From Enterobacteria phage AH67C600_Q5, in the sequence record MZ833439.1: a stretch of DNA of 38,824 bases; one strand, written 5' to 3'. A program made the position numbers and the translations under genes. Each line of letters starts with the position of its first letter. Position 1 is the first letter of the stretch. Positions 138-38,824 of the stretch are shown here, in pieces. Below the pieces are notes generated by a model, which had not been told where the DNA came from, searched no databases, and was given only the letters and a program-made list of their open reading frames with translations.

Positions 138-160
138 TAATACGACTCACTAAAGAGAGA
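138..160 (+). promoter_or_regulatory. T7-RNAP promoter phiOL-like (taatacgactcactaaagagaga)
   Basis: 23-mer matching the T7 promoter core with deviations at -2 and +2 onward; sits where phiOL lies in T7. Confidence 0.7.
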
Positions 161-2605: not shown

Positions 2606-5257
2606 ATGAGCACGATTAACATCGCTAAGAACGATTTCTCTGACATCGAACTGGCTGCTATCCCGTTCAATACTCTGGCTGACCACTACGGTGAGCGCCT
2701 AGCTCGCGAGCAGTTGGCCCTTGAGCATGAGAGCTATGAAATGGGTGAAGCACGTTTCCGCAAGATGTTTGAGCGTCAACTCAAGGCCGGTGAGGTTGCA
2801 GACAATGCAGCTGCTAAACCGCTGATTACTACTCTGCTGCCCAAGATGGTTACACGCATCAACGACTGGTTTGAGGAAGTGAAAGCTAAGCGCGGCAAAC
2901 GTCCAACCGCTTTCCAGTTCCTGCAAGGAATCAAGCCGGAATCTGTAGCGTATATCACCATCAAGACTACCCTTGCTTGTCTGACGAGCGTTGACAATAC
3001 AACCGTTCAGGCTGTAGCAAGCGCCATCGGACGGGCTATCGAGGAAGAAGCTCGCTTCGGTCGAATCCGTGACCTAGAAGCTAAGCACTTCAAGAAAAAC
3101 GTTGAGGAACAACTAAACAAGCGCGTAGGGCACGTCTATAAGAAGGCATTCATGCAGGTAGTCGAGGCTGATATGCTCTCTAAGGGTCTACTAGGTGGCG
3201 AGGCGTGGTCTTCATGGCACAAGGAAGACTCCATTCACGTAGGTGTACGCTGCATTGAGATGCTCATTGAGTCCACCGGAATGGTTAGCCTGCACCGCCA
3301 AAATGCTGGCGTAGTGGGCCAAGACTCTGAGACTATCGAGCTGGCACACGAATACGCTGAGGCTATCGCAACCCGCGCTGGGGCACTGGCTGGCATCTCT
3401 CCGATGTATCAGCCTTGCATAGTCCCTCCTAAGCCTTGGACTGGTGTAACTGGTGGTGGCTACTGGGCCAACGGTCGCCGCCCTCTGGTACTGGTACGCA
3501 CTCACAGCAAGAAGGCACTGATGCGCTACGAAGATGTTTACATGCCTGAGGTATACAAGGCGATCAACATTGCGCAAAACACCGCTTGGAAAATCAACAA
3601 GAAAGTCCTAGCAGTAGCCAACGTGATAACCAAGTGGAAGCACTGCCCGGTCGAGGACATCCCTTCGATTGAGCGTGAAGAACTCCCGATGAAACCGGAA
3701 GACATCGACACGAATCCTGAGGCACTGACCGCTTGGAAACGTGCTGCTGCCGCTGTGTACCGTAAAGACAAGGCCCGTAAATCTCGCCGCATAAGCCTTG
3801 AGTTCATGCTTGAGCAAGCCAACAAGTTTGCTAACCGCAAGGCCATCTGGTTCCCTTACAACATGGACTGGCGTGGCCGTGTGTACGCTGTGTCAATGTT
3901 TAATCCGCAAGGTAACGACATGACCAAAGGACTGCTGACGCTGGCTAAAGGTAAACCAATCGGCAAGGAAGGATTCTACTGGCTGAAAATCCACGGTGCT
4001 AACTGCGCGGGGGTCGATAAGGTTCCATTCCCTGAGCGCATCAAGTTCATTGAGGACAACCACGATAATATCATGGCGTGCGCTAAGTCTCCTCTGGAGA
4101 ACACTTGGTGGGCTGAGCAAGATTCTCCGTTCTGCTTCCTCGCGTTCTGCTTTGAGTACGCTGGGGTACAGCACCACGGACTGAGCTACAACTGCTCGCT
4201 GCCACTGGCGTTCGATGGGTCTTGCTCTGGTATCCAGCACTTCTCCGCGATGCTCCGCGATGAGGTAGGTGGTCGTGCTGTTAACCTGCTTCCTAGCGAA
4301 ACCGTTCAGGACATCTACGGGATTGTTGCTAAGAAAGTAAACGAGATTCTGCAAGCGGATGCAATCAACGGGACCGATAACGAAGTAGTTACCGTGACCG
4401 ATGAGAACACTGGGGAAATCTCTGAGAAAGTCAAGCTGGGTACTAAAGCGTTGGCTGGTCAATGGTTGGCCTACGGTGTGACTCGCAGTGTCACTAAGCG
4501 TTCAGTCATGACGCTGGCATATGGTTCCAAAGAGTTCGGATTCCGTCAGCAAGTCCTTGAGGACACCATACAGCCCGCTATTGATTCCGGTAAGGGTCTG
4601 ATGTTCACACAACCCAATCAGGCCGCTGGGTACATGGCTAAGCTGATTTGGGAATCTGTGAGCGTTACCGTAGTGGCTGCTGTAGAGGCTATGAACTGGC
4701 TTAAGTCTGCTGCGAAACTGCTGGCTGCTGAGGTCAAAGACAAGAAGACTGGTGAGATTCTTCGCAAGCGTTGCGCGGTGTATTGGGTAACTCCTGATGG
4801 CTTCCCTGTGTGGCAGGAATACAAGAAGCCTATTCAGACTCGCTTGAACCTGATGTTCCTCGGTCAGTTCCGCTTGCAGCCGACCATAAACACCAACAAG
4901 GACAGCGAGATTGATGCCCATAAGCAGGAATCTGGTATAGCTCCTAACTTTGTACACAGCCAAGACGGTAGCCACCTACGCAAGACTGTAGTGTGGGCGC
5001 ATGAGAAGTACGGAATCGAATCTTTCGCACTGATTCATGACTCCTTCGGGACCATTCCGGCTGACGCTGCCAACCTCTTCAAAGCTGTTCGTGAAACAAT
5101 GGTTGACACCTACGAGTCCTGCGATGTACTTGCAGACTTCTACAACCAGTTCGCTGACCAGTTACATGAGTCTCAACTGGATAAAATGCCAGCACTTCCG
5201 GCTAAAGGTAACTTGAATTTACGAGACATCTTAGAGTCAGACTTCGCGTTTGCGTAA
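2606..5257 (+). CDS. 1: Single-subunit T7-type DNA-dependent RNA polymerase (gene 1)
   Basis: 883-aa ORF near-identical to T7 RNAP (MSTINIAKNDFSDIELAAIPFNTLADHYGERLAREQL... ending DFAFA). Confidence 0.98.
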   Translation: MSTINIAKNDFSDIELAAIPFNTLADHYGERLAREQLALEHESYEMGEARFRKMFERQLKAGEVADNAAAKPLITTLLPKMVTRINDWFEEVKAKRGKRPTAFQFLQGIKPESVAYITIKTTLACLTSVDNTTVQAVASAIGRAIEEEARFGRIRDLEAKHFKKNVEEQLNKRVGHVYKKAFMQVVEADMLSKGLLGGEAWSSWHKEDSIHVGVRCIEMLIESTGMVSLHRQNAGVVGQDSETIELAHEYAEAIATRAGALAGISPMYQPCIVPPKPWTGVTGGGYWANGRRPLVLVRTHSKKALMRYEDVYMPEVYKAINIAQNTAWKINKKVLAVANVITKWKHCPVEDIPSIEREELPMKPEDIDTNPEALTAWKRAAAAVYRKDKARKSRRISLEFMLEQANKFANRKAIWFPYNMDWRGRVYAVSMFNPQGNDMTKGLLTLAKGKPIGKEGFYWLKIHGANCAGVDKVPFPERIKFIEDNHDNIMACAKSPLENTWWAEQDSPFCFLAFCFEYAGVQHHGLSYNCSLPLAFDGSCSGIQHFSAMLRDEVGGRAVNLLPSETVQDIYGIVAKKVNEILQADAINGTDNEVVTVTDENTGEISEKVKLGTKALAGQWLAYGVTRSVTKRSVMTLAYGSKEFGFRQQVLEDTIQPAIDSGKGLMFTQPNQAAGYMAKLIWESVSVTVVAAVEAMNWLKSAAKLLAAEVKDKKTGEILRKRCAVYWVTPDGFPVWQEYKKPIQTRLNLMFLGQFRLQPTINTNKDSEIDAHKQESGIAPNFVHSQDGSHLRKTVVWAHEKYGIESFALIHDSFGTIPADAANLFKAVRETMVDTYESCDVLADFYNQFADQLHESQLDKMPALPAKGNLNLRDILESDFAFA

Positions 5258-5263
5258 CGTCAA

Positions 5264-5286
5264 ATTAATATCACTATAGGGAAGAC
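5264..5286 (+). promoter_or_regulatory. Damaged T7-promoter-like sequence at the phi1.1A/phi1.1B position (ttaata-tcactatagggaagac)
   Basis: Promoter-like 3' half tcactataggg preceded by ttaata but lacking the cgac of the -11 to -8 region; only one copy where T7 has two promoters flanking an RNase III site. Confidence 0.6.
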
Positions 5287-5362
5287 CTTAAGGTTTAACT
5301 TTAAGACCCTTAAGTGTTAATTAAAGATTTAAATTAAAGACTACTAATAGAGGACTTTAAGT

Positions 5363-5491
5363 ATGCGTAACTTCGAAAAGATGACCAAACGTTCTAACCG
5401 TAACGCTCATGACTTCGAGGCAACCAAGGGTCGTAAGTTGAATAAGACAAAGCGTGATCGCTCACATAAACGTAGCTGGGAGGGTCAGTAA
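5363..5491 (+). CDS. 1.1: gp1.1 small basic protein
   Basis: 42-codon ORF MRNFEKMTKRSNRNAHDFEATKGRKLNKTKRDRSHKRSWEGQ matching T7 gp1.1. Confidence 0.8.
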   Translation: MRNFEKMTKRSNRNAHDFEATKGRKLNKTKRDRSHKRSWEGQ

Positions 5492-5492
5492 G

Positions 5493-5741
5493 ATGGGTCG
5501 TTTATACAGTGGGAACCTGAATGACTTCAAGGCTGCAACAAATAAGCTGTTTGAGTTGGACCTTGCGGTAATATGTGATGACTCGCATGAAGACGATGGG
5601 TATATTCGAGTCCGCATCGAAGACAGAGATGGAAACATGATTGACGGCAGAGCATTCATTCATTACGATGAAGACGTCCTGTACTCTATGGGAACCGCTT
5701 GGTTGAACCATATGTACGACCAGTTGAAGGACTGGAAGTAA
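5493..5741 (+). CDS. 1.2: gp1.2, inhibitor of host dGTP triphosphohydrolase
   Basis: 82-aa ORF MGRLYSGNLNDFKAATNKLFELDLAV...WLNHMYDQLKDWK; termini match T7 gp1.2, central third diverged. Confidence 0.85.
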   Translation: MGRLYSGNLNDFKAATNKLFELDLAVICDDSHEDDGYIRVRIEDRDGNMIDGRAFIHYDEDVLYSMGTAWLNHMYDQLKDWK

Positions 5742-5821: not shown

Positions 5822-6838
5822 ATGATGAACATTAAGACCAACCCGTTTAAAGCAACGTCTTTCGTAGAGTCTGCCATTAAGAAGGCTCTGGATAACGCTG
5901 GGTATCTTATTTGTGATGTAAAATATGACGGAGTTCGTGGTAACATTGTAGTTGACAATACCGCTAACAGTTGCTGGCTCTCTCGTGTATCTAAAACGAT
6001 TCCGGCACTGGAGCACCTAAACGGATTTGATGCGCGCTGGAAGCGTCTTCTGAATGATGACCGTTGCTTCTACAAAGATGGCTTTATGCTGGATGGGGAA
6101 CTAATGGTTAAGGGCGTAGACTTTAACACTGGGTCCGGCCTACTGCGCACCAAGTGGCTCAACAAGAAGAACTTTGAGTTCGACGTTGGAGGTGTACCAC
6201 CACTCAAGGGGTCCAAGGTTGAGTTCGCGTTGGACACCAAACGTCTGAGTGTCCGACTGTATGCTATCCTCCCGCTTCACGTTGTAGAGTCTGGAGAAGA
6301 CTGCGACATCATGACGCTGCTCATGCAGGAACACGTTAAGAACATGCTGCCTCTGCTACAGGAATACTTCCCTGAAATCGAATGGCAAGCGGCTGAGTCT
6401 TACGAGGTTTACGACATGGTGGAACTACAGCAACTGTATGAGAAGAAGCGTGAAGAAGGACATGAGGGTCTCATTGTGAAAGACCCAATGTGCATCTATA
6501 AGCGAGGCAAGAAGTCCGGCTGGTTCAAGCTCAAGCCTGAATGTGAGGCTGACGGTGTAATCCAAGGTGTCAACTGGGGTACTCCTGGTCTAGCCAACGA
6601 TGGCAAGGTAATTGGTTTTAGTGTGCTTCTTGAGACTGGTCGCCTTGTAGATGCCAATAACATCTCTCGCGCCTTAATGGATGAATTTACAGCTAACGTT
6701 AAGGAACACGGAGAGGACTTCTACAACGGACACGCTTGCCAGATTAGCTACATGGAGGAAACACCAGACGGCTCTCTGCGTCACCCATCGTTCGTGTGTT
6801 TCAGAGGAACTGAGGACAATCCTCAAGAGAAAATTTAA
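5822..6838 (+). CDS. 1.3: ATP-dependent DNA ligase (gene 1.3)
   Basis: 338-aa ORF MMNIKTNPFKA...KYDGVRGN (adenylation lysine motif)...; T7 ligase homolog, about 20 aa shorter than T7 as recalled. Confidence 0.93.
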   Translation: MMNIKTNPFKATSFVESAIKKALDNAGYLICDVKYDGVRGNIVVDNTANSCWLSRVSKTIPALEHLNGFDARWKRLLNDDRCFYKDGFMLDGELMVKGVDFNTGSGLLRTKWLNKKNFEFDVGGVPPLKGSKVEFALDTKRLSVRLYAILPLHVVESGEDCDIMTLLMQEHVKNMLPLLQEYFPEIEWQAAESYEVYDMVELQQLYEKKREEGHEGLIVKDPMCIYKRGKKSGWFKLKPECEADGVIQGVNWGTPGLANDGKVIGFSVLLETGRLVDANNISRALMDEFTANVKEHGEDFYNGHACQISYMEETPDGSLRHPSFVCFRGTEDNPQEKI

Positions 6839-6905: not shown

Positions 6906-6995
6906 ATGATGTACTTACTTCCACTACTAATTATCATCGTCGGATGTCTTGCGCTACACTATAGCGATGACGACATGCCCGATGGTCACGCTTAA
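6906..6995 (+). CDS. 1.5: gp1.5-like 29-aa hydrophobic protein
   Basis: MMYLLPLLIIIVGCLALHYSDDDMPDGHA; matches T7 gp1.5 as recalled; under 60 aa so not in the ORF track. Confidence 0.65.
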   Translation: MMYLLPLLIIIVGCLALHYSDDDMPDGHA

Positions 6996-8664: not shown

Positions 8665-9084
8665 GTGGAGCTGCGGGAGAAAATCCTTGAGAGAGTCAAG
8701 GTGACTTCCGCTGGATGTTGGGAGTGGCAGGGTGCTACGAACAGTAAGGGATACGGACAGGTGTGGTGTAGTGACACCGGAAAGGTGGTGTACTGCCACC
8801 GAGTAATGTCTAATGCCACGAAAGGTTCTACAGTCCTGCACTCCTGTGATAATCCATTATGTTGTAACCCTGAACACCTATCCATAGGAACTCCAAAAGA
8901 GAACTCCGCCGACATGGTAAATAAGGGTCGCTCACACAAGGGGTATAAACTTTCAGATGAAGACGTAATGGCAATCATGGAGTCCAGCGAGTCCAATGCT
9001 TCATTAGCTCGTGCCTATGGTGTCTCCCAACAGACGATTTGTGATATACGCAAGGGGAGGAGATATGGCAGGCTACGGCGCTAA
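8665..9084 (+). CDS. 2.8: HNH homing endonuclease (T7 gene 2.8 position)
   Basis: 139-aa ORF, GTG start; HNH-type motif HSCDNPLCCNPEHL plus C-terminal HTH-like region; paralogous to ORFs at 11759, 18823 and 37496. Confidence 0.8.
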   Translation: MELREKILERVKVTSAGCWEWQGATNSKGYGQVWCSDTGKVVYCHRVMSNATKGSTVLHSCDNPLCCNPEHLSIGTPKENSADMVNKGRSHKGYKLSDEDVMAIMESSESNASLARAYGVSQQTICDIRKGRRYGRLRR

Positions 9085-13170: not shown

Positions 13171-15129
13171 ATGATCGTTTCTGACATCGAAGCTAACGCC
13201 CTCTTAGAGAGCGTCACTAAGTTCCACTGCGGGGTTATCTACGACTACTCCACCGCTGAGTACGTAAGCTACCGTCCGAGTGACTTCGGTGCGTATCTGG
13301 ATGCGCTGGAAGCCGAGGTTGCACGAGGCGGTCTTATTGTGTTCCACAACGGTCACAAGTATGACGTTCCCGCATTGACCAAACTGGCTAAGTTGCAATT
13401 GAACCGAGAGTTCCACCTTCCTCGTGAGAACTGTATTGACACACTTGTGTTGTCACGCTTGATTCACTCCAACCTGAAAGACACCGATATGGGCCTGCTG
13501 CGTTCCGGTAAGTTGCCCGGTAAACGCTTTGGGTCTCACGCTTTGGAGGCGTGGGGCTATCGCTTAGGTGAGATGAAGGGTGAATACAAGGATGACTTTA
13601 AGCGTATGCTTGAAGAGCAAGGTGAAGAATACGTTGACGGAATGGAGTGGTGGAACTTCAACGAAGAGATGATGGCCTATAACGTTCAGGACGTTGTGGT
13701 CACTAAGGCTCTCCTTGAGAAGCTACTCTCTGATAAACATTACTTCCCTCCTGAGATTGACTTTACGGACGTAGGATACACTACGTTCTGGTCAGAATCC
13801 CTTGAGGCCGTTGATGTTGAACATCGCGCTGCGTGGCTACTCGCTAAGCAAGAGCGCAATGGATTCCCGTTTGACACGAAAGCAATCGAAGAGTTGTACG
13901 TAGAGTTAGCTGCCCGTCGCTCTGAGTTGCTACGTAAATTGACCGAAACGTTCGGCTCGTGGTATCAACCTAAGGGTGGTACAGAAATGTTCTGCCATCC
14001 GAGGACTGGTAAACCACTTCCCAAGTATCCTCGCATTAAGACACCTAAAGTTGGTGGTATCTTTAAGAAGCCTAAGAACAATGCACAGCGAGAAGGCAGA
14101 GAGCCTTGTGAACTGGATACCCGTGAATACGTTGCTGGTGCTCCGTATACTCCAGTAGAGCACGTAGTGTTTAACCCTTCGTCTCGTGACCACATCCAGA
14201 AGAAACTCCAAGAGGCTGGATGGGTCCCAACCAAGTACACCGATAAGGGTGCTCCTGTGGTGGACGATGAGGTACTCGAAGGAGTACGTGTAGACGACCC
14301 TGAGAAGCAAGCTGCTATCGACCTCATTAAAGAGTACCTGATGATTCAGAAGAGAATCGGTCAGTCTGCTGAGGGAGACAAGGCGTGGCTTCGTTACGTT
14401 GCCGAGGACGGTAAGATTCATGGTTCTGTTAACCCTAATGGAGCAGTTACGGGTCGTGCTACCCATGCGTTCCCCAACCTTGCGCAAATTCCGGGTGTAC
14501 GTTCTCCTTATGGTGAGCAGTGCCGCGCTGCTTTTGGCGCTGAACATCACTTAGATGGACTTACAGGTAAGCCTTGGGTTCAGGCTGGTATAGACGCCTC
14601 CGGTCTGGAGTTACGTTGCTTGGCCCACTTCATGGCTCGCTTTGATAACGGTGAGTATGCTCACGAGATTCTTAATGGTGACATTCACACTAAGAATCAG
14701 ATAGCTGCCGAATTGCCTACCCGTGATAACGCCAAGACGTTCATCTATGGGTTCCTTTATGGTGCTGGTGATGAGAAGATTGGGCAGATTGTTGGTGCTG
14801 GTAAAGAGCGCGGTAAGGAACTCAAGAAGAAATTCCTTGAGAACACCCCTGCGATTGCGGCACTCCGAGAGTCTATCCAACAGACACTCGTTGAGTCATC
14901 TCAGTGGGTAGCTGGTGAACAGCAAGTCAAGTGGAAACGCCGCTGGATTAAAGGACTTGATGGGCGCAAAGTCCATGTCCGTAGTCCTCATGCTGCCCTG
15001 AACACCTTGCTGCAATCTGCTGGTGCTCTTATCTGCAAACTGTGGATTATCAAGACCGAAGAGATGCTCTTAGAGAAAGGCTTGAAGCATGGCTGGGATG
15101 GGGACTTTGCGTACATGGCATGGGTGCAT
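13171..15129 (+). CDS. 5: DNA polymerase (gene 5) exon 1, codons 1-653
   Basis: Family A polymerase near-identical to T7 gp5 up to ...[11 protein letters not shown], then leaves the T7 reading frame; the uninterrupted ORF stops 8 codons later at 15153. Confidence 0.95.
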
Positions 15130-15730
15130 AAACTATCTCATTGTGCACATTAAATCTGGTGAACTCGGTGAAACCCTTCTAGGGCAATACCGAGCCAAGC
15201 CATAGGGAGGATATATGAGAGGCAAGAAGTTAATCCTTGCGACCACAGAGAGTGGTTGTATCATCCCTACGTCACACAAACTTAATACTGATGGTTATTT
15301 CCGAAAGAAGACGAACGGTGTCCTAGAGATGTATCACAGGACAGTCTGGAAGGAACACTACGGAGATATACCAGAAGGGTATGAAGTAGACCACAAGTGT
15401 AGGAACAGGGCGTGCTGTAACGTAGAGCACCTCCAGTTATTAGAAGGTTCTGAGCATACAGTCAAGACAAACAGGGAACGATACGCTGACCGTAAAGATT
15501 CCGCGAAGGAATACTGGTTGGAGACTGGATGTACAGGAACACACTTAGGTGAGAAGTTTGGTGTAACGTTCTCTGCCGCTTGTAAGTGGATTAGAGAGTG
15601 GAAGGCGTAGAGACTATCCGAAAGGAGTAGGGCCGAGGGTGAGATTCCCTCGTTACCCGAAGCGCCAGACAGTCAACTCAAAGGCTGATGATATAGTCCG
15701 ACACTCCTAGCAATAGGAGAATACAGAAAG
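15130..15730 (+). mobile_element. Group I self-splicing intron interrupting gene 5, carrying an HNH ORF
   Basis: 601-bp interruption between codons His653 and Asp654; exon 1 ends in U (15129); candidate internal guide gtgcac at 15143-15148 can pair with exon end gugcau including a U-G wobble at the splice site; intron ends in G (15730); exons join in frame to a 704-aa product. Confidence 0.85.
15215..15610 (+). CDS. Intron-encoded HNH homing endonuclease
   Basis: 131-aa ORF with RBS gggagg upstream; motifs EVDHKCRNRACCNVEHL typical of HNH endonucleases; lies entirely inside the intron. Confidence 0.85.
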   Translation: MRGKKLILATTESGCIIPTSHKLNTDGYFRKKTNGVLEMYHRTVWKEHYGDIPEGYEVDHKCRNRACCNVEHLQLLEGSEHTVKTNRERYADRKDSAKEYWLETGCTGTHLGEKFGVTFSAACKWIREWKA

Positions 15731-15886
15731 GATGAGATTCAGGTAGGTTGTCGTACCGAAGAGATTGCTCAGGTGGTCATTGAGACTGCACAAGAGGCGA
15801 TGCGCTGGGTGGGAGACCACTGGAACTTCAGGTGTCTTCTGGATACCGAAGGTAAGATGGGTCCTAACTGGGCCGTATGTCACTAA
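15731..15886 (+). CDS. 5: DNA polymerase (gene 5) exon 2, codons 654-704
   Basis: DEIQVGCRTEEIAQVVIETAQEAMRWVGDHWNFRCLLDTEGKMGPNWAVCH*, matching the T7 gp5 C-terminus. Confidence 0.93.
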   Translation, partial: DEIQVGCRTEEIAQVVIETAQEAMRWVGDHWNFRCLLDTEGKMGPNWAVCH

Positions 15887-15905
15887 TTCTATAGGAGAAA
15901 TTATT

Positions 15906-18559: not shown

Positions 18560-18826
18560 ATGGGTAAGAAAATTAAGAAGGCCGTTAAGAAAGTCGTTAA
18601 GGAAGTGGCTCGTCCGATTAAACAGGTTGCTGGTGGCATTGCCGGTCTGGCTGGCGGGCAAGTATTGGAAGTTCCACAGGCTGCTGCACAGATTGTTGAC
18701 GCGCCTGAGAAAGAGGTTTCCACTGAGGACGAAGCACAGACCGAAAGCGGACGTAAGAAAGCTCGCGCTGGTGGTAAGAAGTCATTAAGTGTGGCTCGTA
18801 GCTCAGGTGGGGGTATAAATATATGA
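18560..18826 (+). CDS. 7.3: gp7.3 tail-associated protein
   Basis: 88-aa Lys/Ala-rich ORF MGKKIKKAVKKVVKEVARPIKQVAGGIAGLAGG... Confidence 0.85.
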   Translation: MGKKIKKAVKKVVKEVARPIKQVAGGIAGLAGGQVLEVPQAAAQIVDAPEKEVSTEDEAQTESGRKKARAGGKKSLSVARSSGGGINI

Positions 18827-19218
18827 CAGATTGTATCGAGTGGACTGGCTACCTCACAAAAGATGGGTACGGCGAAACTCGACTGAATGGTGTCAAGTTT
18901 AGGGTTCATCGTCTAGAATGGGTGAAACAAAGAGGCCCAATACCTGAAGGTCTAGTTGTTCGCCATAAGTGCGATAACCCTAAATGTTACAATATCGAAC
19001 ACCTTGAGCTAGGAACAACTCAGGATAACACTAGAGATAGGGTCTTGAGGAATAGAAGCGCAAAGGGAGTACGTAATGGTAATTCCAAATTAACACCCGA
19101 TGTCGTTCTGGCAATACGTGCAAGTAGTAAGACCCACAAGCTGATAGCCGAAGAGTTCGGTGTATCCAAATCAGTTGTGACACAGATACGAGCACGTAAG
19201 ACATGGAGGCATATCTAA
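18823..19218 (+). CDS. 7.7: HNH homing endonuclease (T7 gene 7.7 position)
   Basis: 131-aa ORF with HKCDNPKCYNIEHL motif and C-terminal HTH-like region. Confidence 0.85.
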   Translation: MTDCIEWTGYLTKDGYGETRLNGVKFRVHRLEWVKQRGPIPEGLVVRHKCDNPKCYNIEHLELGTTQDNTRDRVLRNRSAKGVRNGNSKLTPDVVLAIRASSKTHKLIAEEFGVSKSVVTQIRARKTWRHI

Positions 19219-21816: not shown

Positions 21817-21817
21817 T

Positions 21818-22168
21818 AGACTCTCAACTTGCCGGATTCATCCAATGAGAACATTACTGGCCTTGGGTCCGCATCGGTCATTGAGACTACTCAGGCTAAG
21901 ACTCGCTGGAACCTCTCGCGCTAATACCGATGGTCAGAAACATGGCTTCCCAGAAGGCGTTGGCGGTAACAACAAGGTGGCTAAAATCAACGTTATCGGC
22001 CTGTTCATGCACCGCTCTGCGGTTGGTACTGTGAAACTGCGTGACTTGGCTCTGGAGCGCGCTCGCCGTGCTAACTTCCAAGCTGACCAGATTATCGCTA
22101 AGTACGCAATGGGCCACGGTGGTCTGCGCCCAGAAGCTGCTGGTGCAGTGGTTTTCAAAGCGGGGTAA
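21818..22168 (+). pseudogene. 10: Remnant of the major capsid protein gene (gene 10): about 115 of about 345 codons, in two different frames
   Basis: In the frame from 21820, NENITGLGSASVIETTQAK resembles T7 gp10 NENIEGLGTATVIETTQNK and then hits a stop at 21919-21921; in the +1 frame, [87 protein letters not shown] matches the gp10 C-terminus. No N-terminal half, no start codon, no RBS, no promoter. Confidence 0.85.
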
Positions 22169-22284
22169 TGCATGAAGTGACCTCAACGGTCGCTGCTAGT
22201 ACCGAAGAGGTAAGCATTACTGCCGAAGAGAGTCTAACTCCAGCACAAAAAGCTGCACGTACACGCTTTAATGGGAGGAACTAT

Positions 22285-22875
22285 ATGCGCTCTTACGATA
22301 TGAACGTTGAGACTGCCGCTGAGTTATCCGCTGTTAACGACATTCTGGCATCTATCGGTGAACCTCCGGTATCGACGCTGGAAGGTGACGCTAACGCAGA
22401 TGTGGCGAACGCTCGGCGTATTCTCAACAAGATTAACCGACAGATTCAGTCTCGTGGCTGGACATTCAACATTGAGGAAGGCATAACGCTATTACCTGAT
22501 GTTTACTCCAACCTGATTGTATACAGTGACGACTATTTGTCCCTAATGGCTACTTCTGGTCAATCCATCTACGTCAACCGAGGTGGCTATGTGTATGACC
22601 GAACGAGTCAATCTGACCGCTTTGAATCTGGCATTACCGTTAACATTATTCGTCTTCGAGACTACGATGAGATGCCTGAGTGCTTCCGCTACTGGATTGT
22701 CACTAAGGCTTCCCGTCAGTTCAACAACCGATTCTTTGGGGCACCAGAAGTAGAAGGTGCACTCCAAGAAGAGGAAGATGAGGCTCGACGTCTCTGCATG
22801 GAGTACGAAGTGGACTACGGTGGGTACAATATGCTGGATGGCGATGCGTTCACTTCTGGTCTACTGACTCGCTAA
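22285..22875 (+). CDS. 11: Tail tubular protein A (gene 11)
   Basis: 196 aa from ATG 22285 ([35 protein letters not shown]...), near-identical to T7 gp11; upstream part of track ORF 22168..22875 is the gene 10B-extension remnant. Confidence 0.95.
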
Positions 22876-22895
22876 TAATCAATAAGGAGGCTCTA

Positions 22896-25280
22896 ATGGC
22901 ACTCATTAGCCAATCAATCAAGAACTTGAAGGGTGGTATCAGCCAACAGCCTGACATCCTTCGTTATCCAGACCAAGGGTCACGCCAAGTTAACGGTTGG
23001 TCTTCGGAGACCGAGGGCCTCCAAAAGCGTCCACCTATGGTTTTCCTTAAGACCCTAGGAGGAAGTGGTGACTTAGGACAAGCGCCTTACATCCACCTGA
23101 TTAACCGTGATGAACGAGAACAGTATTACGCTGTGTTCACTGGTAGTGGAATCAGAGTGTTCGACCTTGCTGGTAACGAGAAGCAAGTTAGGTATCCTAA
23201 CGGTTCCGACTACATCAATACCGCTAATCCGCGTAACGACCTGCGAATGGTTACTGTAGCAGACTACACGTTCATCGTTAATCGCAACGTTGCTGTACAG
23301 AAGAACGAAACGTCTGTCAACTTACCGAATTACAACCCTAAGCAAGATGGATTGATTAACGTTCGTGGTGGTCAGTATGGTAGGGAACTAATTGTGCACA
23401 TTAACGGTAAAGACGTTGCGAAGTATAAAATCCCAGATGGTAGCAAACCTGAACACGTAAACAATACGGATGCCCAATGGTTAGCCGAAGAGTTAGCCAA
23501 GCAGATGAGCACTAACTTGTCTGGTTGGGCTGTAAATGTGGGGCAAGGGTTCATACACGTTACCGCACCTAGCGATCAACAGATTGACTCCTTCACGACT
23601 AAAGACGGATACGCAGACCAGTTGATTAACCCTGTGACCCACTACGTTCAGTCGTTCTCTAAGTTACCACCTAATGCTCCTGACGGCTACATGGTGAAAA
23701 TAGTAGGGGACGCCTCTAAGTCTGCCGACCAGTATTATGTTCGGTATGACGCTGAGCGGAAAGTTTGGGTTGAGACTTTAGGCTGGAACACTGAGAACCA
23801 AGTCCTATGGGAAACAATGCCACACGCTCTTGTGCGAGCCGCTGACGGTAATTTCGACTTCAAGTGGCTTGAGTGGTCTCCTAAGTCTTGTGGTGACGTT
23901 GACACCAACCCTTGGCCTTCTTTTGTTGGTTCAAGTATTAACGATGTGTTCTTCTTCCGTAACCGCTTAGGGTTCCTTAGTGGGGAGAACATCATATTGA
24001 GTCGTACAGCCAAATACTTCAACTTCTACCCTGCGTCCATTGCGAACCTTAGTGATGACGACCCTATAGACGTAGCTGTGAGTACCAACCGAATAGCAAT
24101 CCTTAAGTACGCCGTTCCGTTCTCAGAAGAGTTACTCATATGGTCAGATGAAGCCCAGTTCGTCCTGACTGCATCTGGTACCCTTACATCGAAGTCAGTT
24201 GAGTTGAACCTAACGACTCAGTTTGATGTGCAGGACCAAGCGAGACCTTACGGGATTGGGCGTAACGTCTACTTTGCTAGTCCGAGGTCCAGCTACACGT
24301 CCATCCACAGATATTACGCCGTGCAGGATGTAAGTTCCGTTAAGAACGCTGAGGACATTACATCACATGTTCCTAACTACATCCCTAATGGTGTGTTCAG
24401 TATTTGTGGTAGTGGTACGGAAAACTTCTGTTCGGTACTATCTCATGGGGACCCCAGCAAAATCTTCATGTACAAATTCCTGTACCTGAATGAAGAGCTA
24501 CGACAACAGTCGTGGTCTCACTGGGACTTTGGGGAAAACGTGCAGGTTCTAGCGTGCCAAAGTATCAGCTCAGATATGTATGTTATTCTTCGCAATGAGT
24601 TCAATACGTTCCTAGCTAAAATCTCTTTCACTAAGAACGCCATTGACTTACGAGGTGAACCTTACCGTGCCTTTATGGACATGAAGATTCGCTACACGAT
24701 TCCGAGTGGAACATACAACGATGACACGTTCACTACCTCTATCCATATTCCAACCATTTATGGTGCAAACTTCGGGAGGGACACAATCACCGTATTGGAG
24801 CCTGATGGTAAGATAACCGTATGTGAGCAACCAACTGGTGGGTGGAATAGTGACCCTTGGCTGAGACTCAGCGGTAACTTAGAGGGACGTGAAGTGTTCA
24901 TTGGGTTCAACATACACTTCGTCTATGAGTTCTCTAAGTTCCTCATCAAGCAAACTGCCGACGATGGGTCTACCTCCACGGAAGACATTGGTCGCTTACA
25001 GCTACGCCGAGCGTGGGTTAACTACGAGGAATCTGGTACGTTTGATATTTACGTTGAGAACCAATCATCCAACTGGAAGTACACAATGGCTGGTGCTCGC
25101 TTAGGCTCTAACAGTCTGAGGGCTGGGCGATTGAACTTAGGGACCGGACAATACCGATTCCCTGTGGTGGGCAACGCCAAATTCAATACCGTATACATCG
25201 TGTCAGATGCGACTACCCCTCTTAACATCATTGGGTGTGGCTGGGAAGGTAACTACTTACGGAGAAGTTCCGGTATTTAA
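22896..25280 (+). CDS. 12: Tail tubular protein B (gene 12)
   Basis: 794-aa ORF MALISQSIKNLKGGISQQPDILRYPDQGSRQVNGW..., T7 gp12 homolog. Confidence 0.97.
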   Translation: MALISQSIKNLKGGISQQPDILRYPDQGSRQVNGWSSETEGLQKRPPMVFLKTLGGSGDLGQAPYIHLINRDEREQYYAVFTGSGIRVFDLAGNEKQVRYPNGSDYINTANPRNDLRMVTVADYTFIVNRNVAVQKNETSVNLPNYNPKQDGLINVRGGQYGRELIVHINGKDVAKYKIPDGSKPEHVNNTDAQWLAEELAKQMSTNLSGWAVNVGQGFIHVTAPSDQQIDSFTTKDGYADQLINPVTHYVQSFSKLPPNAPDGYMVKIVGDASKSADQYYVRYDAERKVWVETLGWNTENQVLWETMPHALVRAADGNFDFKWLEWSPKSCGDVDTNPWPSFVGSSINDVFFFRNRLGFLSGENIILSRTAKYFNFYPASIANLSDDDPIDVAVSTNRIAILKYAVPFSEELLIWSDEAQFVLTASGTLTSKSVELNLTTQFDVQDQARPYGIGRNVYFASPRSSYTSIHRYYAVQDVSSVKNAEDITSHVPNYIPNGVFSICGSGTENFCSVLSHGDPSKIFMYKFLYLNEELRQQSWSHWDFGENVQVLACQSISSDMYVILRNEFNTFLAKISFTKNAIDLRGEPYRAFMDMKIRYTIPSGTYNDDTFTTSIHIPTIYGANFGRDTITVLEPDGKITVCEQPTGGWNSDPWLRLSGNLEGREVFIGFNIHFVYEFSKFLIKQTADDGSTSTEDIGRLQLRRAWVNYEESGTFDIYVENQSSNWKYTMAGARLGSNSLRAGRLNLGTGQYRFPVVGNAKFNTVYIVSDATTPLNIIGCGWEGNYLRRSSGI

Positions 25281-25329: not shown

Positions 25330-25755
25330 ATGATGACTATAAGACCTACTAAAAGTACAGACTTAGAGGTATTCACTCCGGCTCACCATGACATTCTTGA
25401 AGCTAAGGCTGCTGGTATTGAGCCGAGTTTCCCTGATGCTTCCGAGTGTGTCACGTTGAGCCTCTATGGGTTCCCTCTAGCTATCGGTGGTAACTGCGGG
25501 GGCCAGTGCTGGTTCGTTACGAGCGACCAAGTGTGGCGACTTAGTGGAAAAGCTAAGCGAGAGTTCCGTAAGTTAATCATGGAGTATCGTGATAAGATGC
25601 TTGAGAAGTATGATACTCTTTGGAATTACGTATGGGTAGGTAATACGTCCCACATTCGTTTCCTCAAGACTATCGGTGCGGTATTCCATGAAGAGTACAC
25701 ACGCGATGGTCAGTTTCAGTTATTTACAATAAATAGGAGGACTCAGTATGGCTAG
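25330..25755 (+). CDS. 13: gp13 internal virion protein
   Basis: 141-aa ORF MMTIRPTKSTDLEVFTPAHHDILEAKAAGIEPSF... Confidence 0.9.
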   Translation: MMTIRPTKSTDLEVFTPAHHDILEAKAAGIEPSFPDASECVTLSLYGFPLAIGGNCGGQCWFVTSDQVWRLSGKAKREFRKLIMEYRDKMLEKYDTLWNYVWVGNTSHIRFLKTIGAVFHEEYTRDGQFQLFTINRRTQYG

Positions 25756-26062
25756 AGACAAAGCTAAGAAAGCGGCTTATGACAAGGCTCGCTACAATCC
25801 CCGCGCTAACAAGGACAGACACCTTAGGCGCTCGTATGGGATAACCATAGAAGATTATGATAAAATGTTTGAGTCACAAGGCGGAGCATGTGCCATTTGC
25901 GGTCGCCCTGAAACAGCCAAAGGTCGCTCATTAGCAGTAGATCATTCTCATGATACTGGCGAGGTACGTGGACTTCTGTGTCACGCCTGTAATACCTCCA
26001 TTGGTAAGTTTAGGGAGAACCGTGAGTGGCTTCTTAAAGCTATCAAATATATAGGAGGTTAA
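25748..26062 (+). CDS. HNH endonuclease of the Endonuclease VII-like type, inserted between genes 13 and 14
   Basis: 104-aa ORF with CAICGRPE...AVDHSHDTGEVRGLLCHACNTSIG, the Cys-pair/DH/HxxN pattern of Endo VII-family HNH nucleases; overlaps the gene 13 stop. Confidence 0.8.
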   Translation: MARDKAKKAAYDKARYNPRANKDRHLRRSYGITIEDYDKMFESQGGACAICGRPETAKGRSLAVDHSHDTGEVRGLLCHACNTSIGKFRENREWLLKAIKYIGG

Positions 26063-31900: not shown

Positions 31901-32906
31901 TGGAACCACTAACTACCTTCTGGATGCTGCGCGTCAAGGTATGCTTGGTGACGTTATTAGTGCCACCCTAACAGGTAAGACTACCCGCTGGGAGAAAGAG
32001 GGATTCCTTCGGGGTGCCTCCATAACTCCTGAGCAGATGGCTGGTATCAAGTCTCTAATCAAGGAACACATGGTCCGTGGTGAGGACGGGAAGTTTACCG
32101 TTAAGGACAAGCAAGCGTTCTCTATGGACCCGCGTGCTATGGACTTATGGCGACTGGCTGACAAGGTAGCTGATGAGGCGATGCTGCGTCCGCATAAGGT
32201 GTCCTTACAGGATTCCCATGCGTTCGGAGCATTAGGTAAGATGGTGATGCAGTTTAAGTCTTTCACCATTAAATCCCTTAACTCTAAGTTCATTCGAACC
32301 TTCTACGATGGATACAAGAACAACCGAGCGATTGACGCTGCGCTGACTAGTATCATCTCTATGGGTCTCGCTGGTGGTTACTACGCTATGGCTGCACACG
32401 TCAAAGCGTATGGGATGCCTAAGGAGCAACGTAAAGAATACTTGGAGCGAGCACTGGACCCAACCATGATTGCCCACGCTTCGTTGTCTCGTAGTTCTCA
32501 ATTAGGTGCTCCTTTGGCTATGGCTGACCTAGTTGGTGGTATCTTAGGGGTAGAGTCCTCCAAGATGGTTCGCTCCACGATTCTACCTAAGGACACCATG
32601 AAGGAACGTGACCCAAACAAACCGTACACCTCTAGAGAGGTAATGGGAGCTATGGGTTCGAACCTTCTGGAGCAGATGCCTTCGGCTGGCTTTGTGGCTA
32701 ACGTTGGGGCCTCCCTAATGAACGCTGCTGGTGTGGTTAACTCACCTAACAAAGCAACCGAGCAGGACTTCATGACTGGCTTAATGAACTCTACCAAAGA
32801 GTTAGTGCCTAACGACCCTCTTACTCAACAGCTTGTGGTTAAGATTTATGAGGCCAACGGTGTTAACTTGAAGGAGCGTCGGAATGAAAGAATCTTCTCC
32901 CTGTAG
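28932..32906 (+). CDS. 16: Internal virion protein D with N-terminal lytic transglycosylase domain (gene 16)
   Basis: 1324-aa ORF; N-terminal transglycosylase-like region (TESRFVPTAKSKTGPLGMMQF); T7 gp16 homolog with a 6-aa longer C-terminus (NERIFSL*). Confidence 0.95.
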   Translation: MDKYDKNVPSDYDGLFQKAADANGVSYDLLRKVAWTESRFVPTAKSKTGPLGMMQFTKATAKALGLRVTDGPDDDRLNPELAINAAAKHLAGLVGKFDGDELKAALAYNQGEGRLGNPQLEAYSKGDFASISEEGRNYMRSLLDVAKSPMAGQLETFGGITPKGKGIPAEVGLAGIGHKQKVTQELPESTSFDVKGIEQEAPAKPFAKDFWETHGETLDEYNSRSTFFGFKNAAEAELSNSVAGMAFRAGRLDNGFDVFKDTITPTRWNSHIWTPEELEKIRTEVKNPAYINVVTGGSPENLDDLIKLANENFENDSRAAEAGLGAKLSAGVIGAGVDPLSYVPMVGVTGKGFKLVNKALVVGAESAALNVASEGLRTSVAGGDAHYSEAALSGFLFGAGMSAISDAVAAGLKRSKPEVEFDNEFIGPMMRMEARETARNANSADLSRMNTENMKFEGEHNGIPYADLPTEKGAVVLHDGSVISASNPTNPKTLKEFSEVDPEKAARGIKLAGFTEIGLKTLGSDDADIRRVAIDLVRSPTGMQSGASGKFGATASDIHERLHGTDQRTYNDLYKAMSDAMKDPEFSTGGAKMSREEARYTIYRRAALAIERPELQSALTRSERTVMDIIKRHFDTKRELMENPAIFGNTKAVSIFPESRHKGTYVPHVYDRHAKAVMIQRYGAEGLQEGVARSWMNSYVSRPEVKARVDEMLKELHGVKEVTPEMVEKYAMDKAYGISHSDQFTNSSIIEENIEGLVGIENNSFLEARNLFDSDLSITMPDGQQFSVNDLRDFDMFHIMPAYDRRVNGDIAIMGSTGKTTKELKDEILALKAKAEGDGKKTGEVHALMDTVKILTGRARRNQDTVWETSMRAINDLGFFAKNAYMGAQNLTEIAGMFATGNVRALGHGIPILRDTLYKSKPVSAKELKELHASLFGKEVDQLIRPKRADIVQRLREATDTGPAVANIVGTLKYSTQELAARSPWTKVLNGTTNYLLDAARQGMLGDVISATLTGKTTRWEKEGFLRGASITPEQMAGIKSLIKEHMVRGEDGKFTVKDKQAFSMDPRAMDLWRLADKVADEAMLRPHKVSLQDSHAFGALGKMVMQFKSFTIKSLNSKFIRTFYDGYKNNRAIDAALTSIISMGLAGGYYAMAAHVKAYGMPKEQRKEYLERALDPTMIAHASLSRSSQLGAPLAMADLVGGILGVESSKMVRSTILPKDTMKERDPNKPYTSREVMGAMGSNLLEQMPSAGFVANVGASLMNAAGVVNSPNKATEQDFMTGLMNSTKELVPNDPLTQQLVVKIYEANGVNLKERRNERIFSL

Positions 32907-37495: not shown

Positions 37496-37939
37496 ATGAT
37501 AAGCAAGAAGAAGTATGTTATCGATAAGGAGACTGGTTGCTGGAACTTTAGGGGATGTAAGACGAAGACTGGTTATGGTCGCATTCGTGTGAACGGAGTC
37601 CATTGGATGGCCCACAGGTATTCCCTGAGTTGTCATCTAGGCAGACCGATAGCTGACGGAATGGTTGTGATGCACCTATGTGATAATCCTTCATGTGTTA
37701 ACCCTGAGCACCTTAAGGAAGGGACTCAGAAGGAGAACATAGAGGACTGCATCTCAAAAGGTCGTGCAACTAAGTCCACAGGTAAACGTGATGCAACTAA
37801 GAGAGACCCTAGCGAGGAACGTAAGGCTATAGTGATTCGAAGATACCATAAAGGCTGGACCGCAACGTCCATAGCGAGATACCATAAGCTCTCTGTGGCG
37901 TGGGTAAAGAGGGTCATTGAGGATTACCTAAGTGATTGA
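37496..37939 (+). CDS. HNH homing endonuclease between gene 19 and phiOR
   Basis: 147-aa ORF with RBS aaggagg; MHLCDNPSCVNPEHL motif and C-terminal HTH-like region; paralog of the 8665, 11759 and 18823 ORFs. Confidence 0.85.
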   Translation: MISKKKYVIDKETGCWNFRGCKTKTGYGRIRVNGVHWMAHRYSLSCHLGRPIADGMVVMHLCDNPSCVNPEHLKEGTQKENIEDCISKGRATKSTGKRDATKRDPSEERKAIVIRRYHKGWTATSIARYHKLSVAWVKRVIEDYLSD

Positions 37940-37990: not shown

Positions 37991-38013
37991 TAATTCGACT
38001 CACTATAGGGAGA
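37991..38013 (+). promoter_or_regulatory. T7-RNAP promoter phiOR-like (taattcgactcactatagggaga)
   Basis: Only remaining 23-mer with the full class III-type tatagggaga 3' half; carries T instead of A at -13. Confidence 0.8.
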
Positions 38014-38657: not shown

Positions 38658-38753
38658 CTAAAGTCACCTCCTAAAGTCATTCTACCGTCTACAGCCTAAA
38701 GACTACACCTAAAGACCCATTCAGTCAATCCCTATCTTAAAGATAATCCTAAA

Positions 38754-38824
38754 GACCATACCTAAAGACCATACCTAAAGACCATACCTAAAGACCATAC
38801 CTAAAGACCATACCTAAAGACCAT
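38754..38824. repeat. Tandem array of the 13-bp unit (accatacctaaag), about 5.5 copies, truncated by the window end; continuous with the array at 1-77
   Basis: Direct reading; preceded at 38650-38750 by dispersed cctaaag motifs as in the T7 left end. Confidence 0.9.

Follow-up and report, generated by a model that had tools for sequence, protein, structure and literature searches.

Probable vector-screen deletion of the primary origin region in a T7-like phage genome record

The primary origin in T7 and in the record

The primary origin, with its promoters phi1.1A and phi1.1B, is where T7 begins to replicate, and if it is deleted, secondary origins such as phiOR and phi6.5 can take over (PMC8373140). 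The primary origin covers T7 ~5830-5990 and comprises phi1.1A, the RNase III site R1.1, phi1.1B and an AT-rich region; the two promoters have 19 nt in common (TTAATACGACTCACTATAG), and the R1.1 hairpin is present in all intact relatives. The specificity region of T7 promoters, -12 to -8 (CGACT), is the contact of the polymerase specificity loop. What a real deletion at the phi1.1 locus looks like is shown by the T7 mutant T7_1t1 (OL964748.1), in which a genuine 75-nt deletion fuses phi1.1A with phi1.1B and removes R1.1.

The DNA analysed here, called the window, is the whole stretch of 38,824 nt in record MZ833439.1 (Enterobacteria phage AH67C600_Q5). It represents the nearly complete genome of a phage of the T7 group (Teseptimavirus) in the usual T7 gene order, ~88-93% identical, in a mosaic pattern, to T7, 13a, HZP2, HZ2R8 and Yersinia phages. 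Its two ends have 68-73 identical nt in common and lie inside a 13-bp tandem array with the unit CATACCTAAAGAC (1-80 and 38750-38824), which indicates a circularised assembly in which the terminal repeat is collapsed and the true genome ends are not represented. All essential genes other than the capsid gene are intact open reading frames (ORFs). The DNA polymerase gene 5 is interrupted (13171-15887): a 660-aa ORF (13171-15153) is followed by an ORF for an HNH_3 endonuclease (15215-15610, Pfam E = 7e-17) and then by the last ~157 nt of the gene (15731-15887), an arrangement resembling that of phage 13a, where a joined gp5 plus endonuclease are annotated. Four further homing-type nuclease ORFs are extra relative to T7 (8806-9084, 18823-19218, 25748-26062 and 37496-37939), three of the HNH_3 type, with the ORF at 8806 just under the Pfam cut-off, and one Endonuclease_7 situated between genes 13 and 14.

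At the position of the T7 primary origin, the gene 1/gene 1.1 interval followed by an AT-rich region downstream of promoters, the window has a spacer of 105 nt (5258-5362) with a single promoter-like element, ttaata/tcactatagggaagacc. An earlier note on this DNA had read the spacer in the same way, as one element in place of phi1.1A, R1.1 and phi1.1B, and had proposed aligning the locus to T7; the alignment confirms the homology, with T7 5836-5914 missing. Within 5258-5286 (cgtcaaattaata/tcactatagggaagacc), the junction lies between 5270 and 5271, where TCACTATAGGGA starts, and the AT-rich sequence comes next. The retention of this stretch had been described correctly: GC is 23-30% over 5280-5379, the sequence is almost identical to T7, and the homologous stretch of Yersinia phage Y is annotated as rep_origin. 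Compared with HZP2, the closest relative at the locus, one contiguous block of 80 nt is missing and both flanks are identical. In T7 the block is 5836-5914 (79 nt), reaching from the CGAC of phi1.1A to the CGAC of phi1.1B, so that what had been taken for a collapse plus a separate 4-nt loss is a single gap; CGAC is indeed lost, at -12 to -9 rather than at -11 to -8. The AT-rich segment and phi1.1B from -8 to +8 are nearly identical in T7 and the window, whereas the phi1.1A core, R1.1 and phi1.1B from -17 to -9 are present in T7 and missing from the record, a difference that is attributed here to a probable editing of the record rather than to biology.

As written, the lone element should not be recognised by T7 RNA polymerase, judging from its sequence. 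In the register given by the TATAG start, the bases from -9 to -13 are a, t, a, a, t against the consensus C, A, G, C, A, and a search with the 23-mer T7 promoter consensus (-17 to +6) did not recover the element at 5264-5286 even with up to six substitutions. The unwinding and initiation region from -8 to +6 (TCACTATAGGGAGA) is present as TCACTATAGGGAAG at 5271-5284 and equals that of phi1.1B in HZP2 and WW2. The R1.1 hairpin (ctcaaggtc...gtggcctttatga) is absent from 5258-5362, in agreement with the earlier note; the predicted RNA fold of this interval is no better than that of shuffled sequences (z = -0.71), and Rfam gave no match on the spacer region. In the record as written, no working promoter for T7 RNA polymerase immediately precedes the AT-rich region; in the real phage one is expected there, and the site is expected to show an intact promoter core once the sequence is corrected.

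A genuine deletion of the 80 nt, removing the phi1.1A core, R1.1 and the upstream half of phi1.1B and leaving replication to start from phiOL/phiOR or from read-through transcription, would be in line with the intact flanks and AT-rich region, with the tolerance of T7 for the loss of one phi1.1 promoter and R1.1 as seen in T7_1t1, and with the use of secondary origins in T7 when the primary one is deleted (PMC8373140). Even so, it is regarded as extremely improbable. T7_1t1 resembles the window in that R1.1 and one promoter copy are gone and the mutant spacer is ~75 nt shorter than in wild-type T7, but unlike the window it keeps CGAC, within an intact hybrid promoter (CAATACGACTCACTATAGGAGAA), and a true recombination product retains this motif. 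Recombination between phi1.1A and phi1.1B, which predicts a 76-nt loss and an intact promoter as in T7_1t1, was rejected as the origin of the gap. Further evidence against a genuine deletion comes from the rest of the genome and from other records.

Excisions along the genome

The spacer gap is one of ~8 clean excisions that local alignments to T7 reveal in the window (Table 1). All five class III promoters, phi6.5, phi9, phi10, phi13 and phi17, are gone; the earlier note had listed phi6.5 and phi13, both truly absent, and had left out the other three. Its statement that phiOR is the only intact origin-associated promoter does not hold, since phiOL is intact as well. The -13 T of phiOR limits its exact match to vector-type promoters to 18 nt. 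The 26 nt cut out at phi9 coincide to the base with the maximal perfect match to the phi10 context. The cuts at phi9 and phi17 also took away the stop codons of genes 8 and 16, whose ORFs are thereby extended by 2 and 8 codons, respectively. A different late-promoter specificity of this phage was dismissed as an explanation, given that the class II promoters and phiOR are of the T7 type and that the class III sites show clean gaps instead of sequence divergence.

The largest loss concerns the capsid gene. After the gene 9 stop codon, T7 22880 to ~23763 is replaced by ~108 nt of scraps, with removal of phi10, the s10 leader and approximately codons 1-257, i.e. ~70% of this essential gene. What remains of gene 10, within 21817-22168, is limited to the final 85-90 codons plus scraps from its variable middle part, and the Pfam family Gp10A-like (major capsid) is matched only at profile positions 197-279 of 279. 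We know of no phage that could exist without a capsid gene; with this gene mostly absent, the record therefore cannot faithfully reproduce a viable phage, and the truncated gene 10 is the clearest sign of this. The lack of ~70% of the capsid gene and of the class III promoters in the same record also weighs against a genuine deletion at the origin. Between the 10B tail and gene 11, the loss of the Tphi block has created an artificial ORF of 235 aa (22168-22875) in which upstream sequence is fused to gp11, the tail tubular protein. At phi3.8, the downstream leader, which resembles the phi10 leader, was probably excised together with the promoter core. Gene 3.8 itself is missing from the window, which may be natural variation.

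Table 1. Positions of the retained, truncated and excised features in the window
Feature	Position	Strand	Basis or remark
phiOL, intact, TAATACGACTCACTAAAGAGAGA	138-160	+	
gene 1, T7-type RNA polymerase, 883 aa, intact	2606-5257	+	ORF list; ~88% identical to T7 gene 1
ttaata, remaining left part of phi1.1A (-18 to -13)	5264-5270	+	alignments with HZP2, WW2, Yersinia phage Y and T7
tcactatagggaagac, remaining right part of phi1.1B (-8 to +8)	5271-5286	+	equals HZP2 and WW2 phi1.1B from -8 onward
AT-rich part of T7-type primary origin, retained	5287-5345	+	GC content and near-identity to T7, 13a and Yersinia phage Y
gene 1.1, 42 aa	5363-5491	+	ORF list
gene 1.2	5493-5741		
phi3.8 core and downstream leader, probable excision; only taattga left	9977/9978	+	alignment to T7
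phi6.5 site, excision junction, 30 nt missing vs T7	17576/17577	+	alignment to T7
phi9 site, excision junction, 26 nt missing (TTAATACGACTCACTATAGGGAGACC)	20824/20825	+	alignment to T7
capsid gene 10, scraps of variable middle	21823-21930	+	alignment to T7
Tphi terminator block, excision junction; T7 24106 to ~24216 missing	22266-22274	+	alignment to T7
phi13 site, excision junction, 31 nt missing vs T7	25303/25304	+	alignment to T7
phi17 site, excision junction, 26 nt missing	32883-32886 (~32884)	+	alignment to T7
phiOR, intact	37991-38013	+	natural -13 T, as in phage 13a

A mixed reading, in which the other excisions are artefacts and the spacer gap alone is real, would describe an AT-rich primary origin that lacks a recognisable phage promoter; if it were true, replication would have to be primed at phiOL/phiOR, by transcripts reading through from gene 1 or in some way that needs no promoter. 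This reading is given hardly any credence.

The gap could also have arisen if the assembler had collapsed the two near-identical promoters, which form a tandem duplication of 76 nt, and added a small local error. The 19 nt common to phi1.1A and phi1.1B could short-circuit a short-k de Bruijn graph, and the terminal repeat of the window, a circularised assembly, is itself collapsed. However, such a collapse predicts the loss of one 76-nt period and an intact hybrid promoter, not the observed loss of 80 nt; it does not extend to the gene 10 and Tphi sequences, which are single-copy and were removed too, and 22-nt promoter repeats were kept twice, at 6993 and 11730. The additional loss of CGAC is moreover identical in four records, and the loop remnant in one of them (vB_Yep_15, described below) is left unexplained, so that an assembler collapse is considered very remote.

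Correspondence with vector-borne segments of T7

The boundaries of the larger excisions coincide with those of T7 segments carried by expression vectors. In the plasmid database PLSDB, pET-like plasmids carry T7 sequence from 22881 as well as 24102/6-24229, and excisions of the window begin at T7 22880 and 24106, i.e. at pET-type insert boundaries. Retained gene 10 sequence starts around codon 257-260, where the 260-codon gene 10 leader of pGEMEX and pET-3x/17x vectors ends. By comparison with pET-like plasmids, the coincidence with vector-borne T7 segments holds for phi10/s10 and for Tphi; for the R1.1 block we infer it. T7 5836-5914 was not found in PLSDB plasmids, and in E. coli genomes checked for the block, the T7 fragment of DE3 stops within phi1.1A, at 5841. 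R1.1 has been moved into engineered plasmids (PMC3643576). Among pET vectors, early ones contained a fragment with R1.1. Literature searches on the vB_Yep phages, on VecScreen match categories and on the coordinates of pET fragments returned nothing usable.

The losses follow a sharp length threshold. Exact matches of at least 23 nt to the three target T7 segments are found nowhere in the window. For the R1.1 block (T7 5836-5914), the longest exact match is 17 nt in the window and 79 nt in 13a; for phi10, s10 and the gene 10 leader (T7 22881-23746), it is 20 and 74 nt, and for Tphi (T7 24106-24228) 12 and 65 nt, respectively. Adjacent control segments of T7 have longest matches of 38-107 nt in the window and of 73-185 nt in 13a, which is intact, so that no more than 20 nt is left of any target segment and the neighbouring sequence is untouched. 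The retained promoters match the vector-type promoter exactly over at most 20-22 nt (20 for phi1.5). VecScreen reports, as weak matches, internal matches scoring at least 23, and the pattern of survival fits a screen of this kind. Gene 1 of the window has exact runs of up to 38 nt in common with T7, none of which was excised, and gene 1 therefore stood outside the screening set. Screening against the whole T7 genome was ruled out on similar grounds, as T7 23-mers are abundant across the window except in the three target segments.

With high probability, the gap at 5270/5271 is an artefact of sequence handling in which vector-like T7 spans were cut and the flanks joined, and not a property of the phage. 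After assembly, each span resembling vector-borne T7 sequence would have been removed and its flanks joined; the segments concerned would be the consensus T7 promoter, the phi10 promoter with the s10 leader and gene 10 up to codon 260, the Tphi fragment and a 79-bp R1.1 fragment (T7 5836-5914). The most probable route would be a submitter deleting spans flagged by a contamination screen of the VecScreen/UniVec type. The pattern of the losses, their boundaries, the length threshold and the recurrence in other records are demonstrated; the identity of the screening tool we infer, and the presence of T7 5836-5914 in the screening database is deduced from the breakpoints.

An artefact at an earlier stage, in which reads or k-mers matching vector or artefact libraries were trimmed and uncovered positions were dropped from a reference-guided consensus, likewise predicts that the losses are confined to vector-like segments of T7 and obey the length threshold, and would agree with a pattern common to three records from two laboratories. 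Removal of reads, on the other hand, normally leads to broken contigs or Ns and not to seamless joins, and the cuts follow the maximal local matches base by base, as in the 26-nt block at phi9 and an 8-nt remnant in vB_Yep_15; therefore, an excision of alignment spans on the finished contig fits better, and trimming at the read stage is judged unlikely.

Recurrence in other records and independent contigs

The junction TTAATA/TCACTATAGG is found in three GenBank records, vB_Yep_9 (PV596790.1), vB_Yep_15 (PV596791.1) and PSP2-22 (ON886116.1). These are different phages from the window, with 72-97% identity depending on the region, so that identical breakpoints recur in records of different genomes; at the junction vB_Yep_9 is 99.2% identical to the window over 131 nt. 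In each of the three, the longest exact match to vector-type T7 segments is at most 20 nt. The vB_Yep_9 and vB_Yep_15 records contain no class III promoters and only a short fragment of the capsid gene, and among the best matches listed from 179 phage records, the junction lacking phi13 occurs only in these two. PSP2-22 comes from another laboratory and is flagged UNVERIFIED_ORG; it has two promoter-like sites in total, and its capsid gene is represented only by a 378-nt feature "similar to major capsid protein". PSP2-22 is a chimeric assembly of T7-like pieces and pieces of unrelated phages.

Two of these records bear on how the cut was made. In vB_Yep_15 an 8-nt remnant, GCTTAAAC, stands between the two halves of the junction and corresponds exactly to the stretch of the R1.1 loop bounded by mismatches to T7. 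Such a remnant would be expected after vector-type screening because only spans aligned to T7's own R1.1 would be deleted. In PSP2-22 the right flank is identical to T7 over at least 52 nt, and the block removed there was therefore T7 5836 to exactly 5914. The loop of R1.1 was also cut in the window and in vB_Yep_9, which would need the loop of the real phage to be of the T7 type or a short segment between two matches to have been removed as well. For a genuine deletion, both the identical breakpoints in four different genome backgrounds and the vB_Yep_15 remnant, which points to an alignment against T7 and not to recombination, are counterevidence.

A protein identical to gp1.1 of the window is encoded on many independent contigs from ENA, Logan and JGI, which never went through a vector-type screen. 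The ten contigs examined all carry the full phi1.1A-R1.1-phi1.1B arrangement and a spacer of 183-187 nt after gene 1, compared to 105 nt in the window. The RNA polymerase protein of the window had no entry in the contig collection. An 18-mer spanning the junction had no match in IMG/VR, and its 47 matches in metagenome and genome contigs are all AT-rich sequences unrelated to T7. This absence of the junction from ten out of ten independent contigs and from IMG/VR likewise disagrees with a genuine deletion.

With the excision of vector-like spans as the preferred explanation, the sequence comparisons also suggest what the real phage looks like. Only near-exact T7 matches could have been flagged, and the missing 80 nt would therefore be almost identical to T7 5836-5914, which in turn implies that the primary origin of the phage is of the canonical T7 type. 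Almost certainly, the retained AT-rich region is preceded in the real phage by phi1.1A, R1.1 and phi1.1B, and replication would begin as in T7, with transcripts made by RNA polymerase at the primary origin. The collapsed origin region is almost certainly not a real feature but an editing artefact of the record. The earlier note had concluded that the loss of origins leaves the start of replication unexplained; with the gap being one of ~8 vector-like excisions whose breakpoints recur in unrelated records, this concern falls away, and the primary origin of the phage is very probably an ordinary one of the T7 type, with no open question of initiation. Nothing in the spacer gap would then bear on how the phage starts replication, and its value would be that of a database-quality warning only. 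Genuine phage DNA appears to have been removed from the window and from at least three public records (PV596790.1, PV596791.1 and ON886116.1) because it resembles vector parts that are themselves derived from T7. Such records have lost promoters, an RNase III site, a terminator and the larger part of the capsid gene, and they would mislead studies of promoter repertoires, of the co-variation of RNA polymerase and promoters, of origin architecture and of capsid phylogeny, as well as the training of sequence models.

Among wild relatives represented by metagenome and read-archive contigs, phi1.1B varies, for example as TAATACGACTCACTATATGAGAA and TTAATTCGACTCACTATAGGGAGAA, and the second origin promoter is not invariant in nature.
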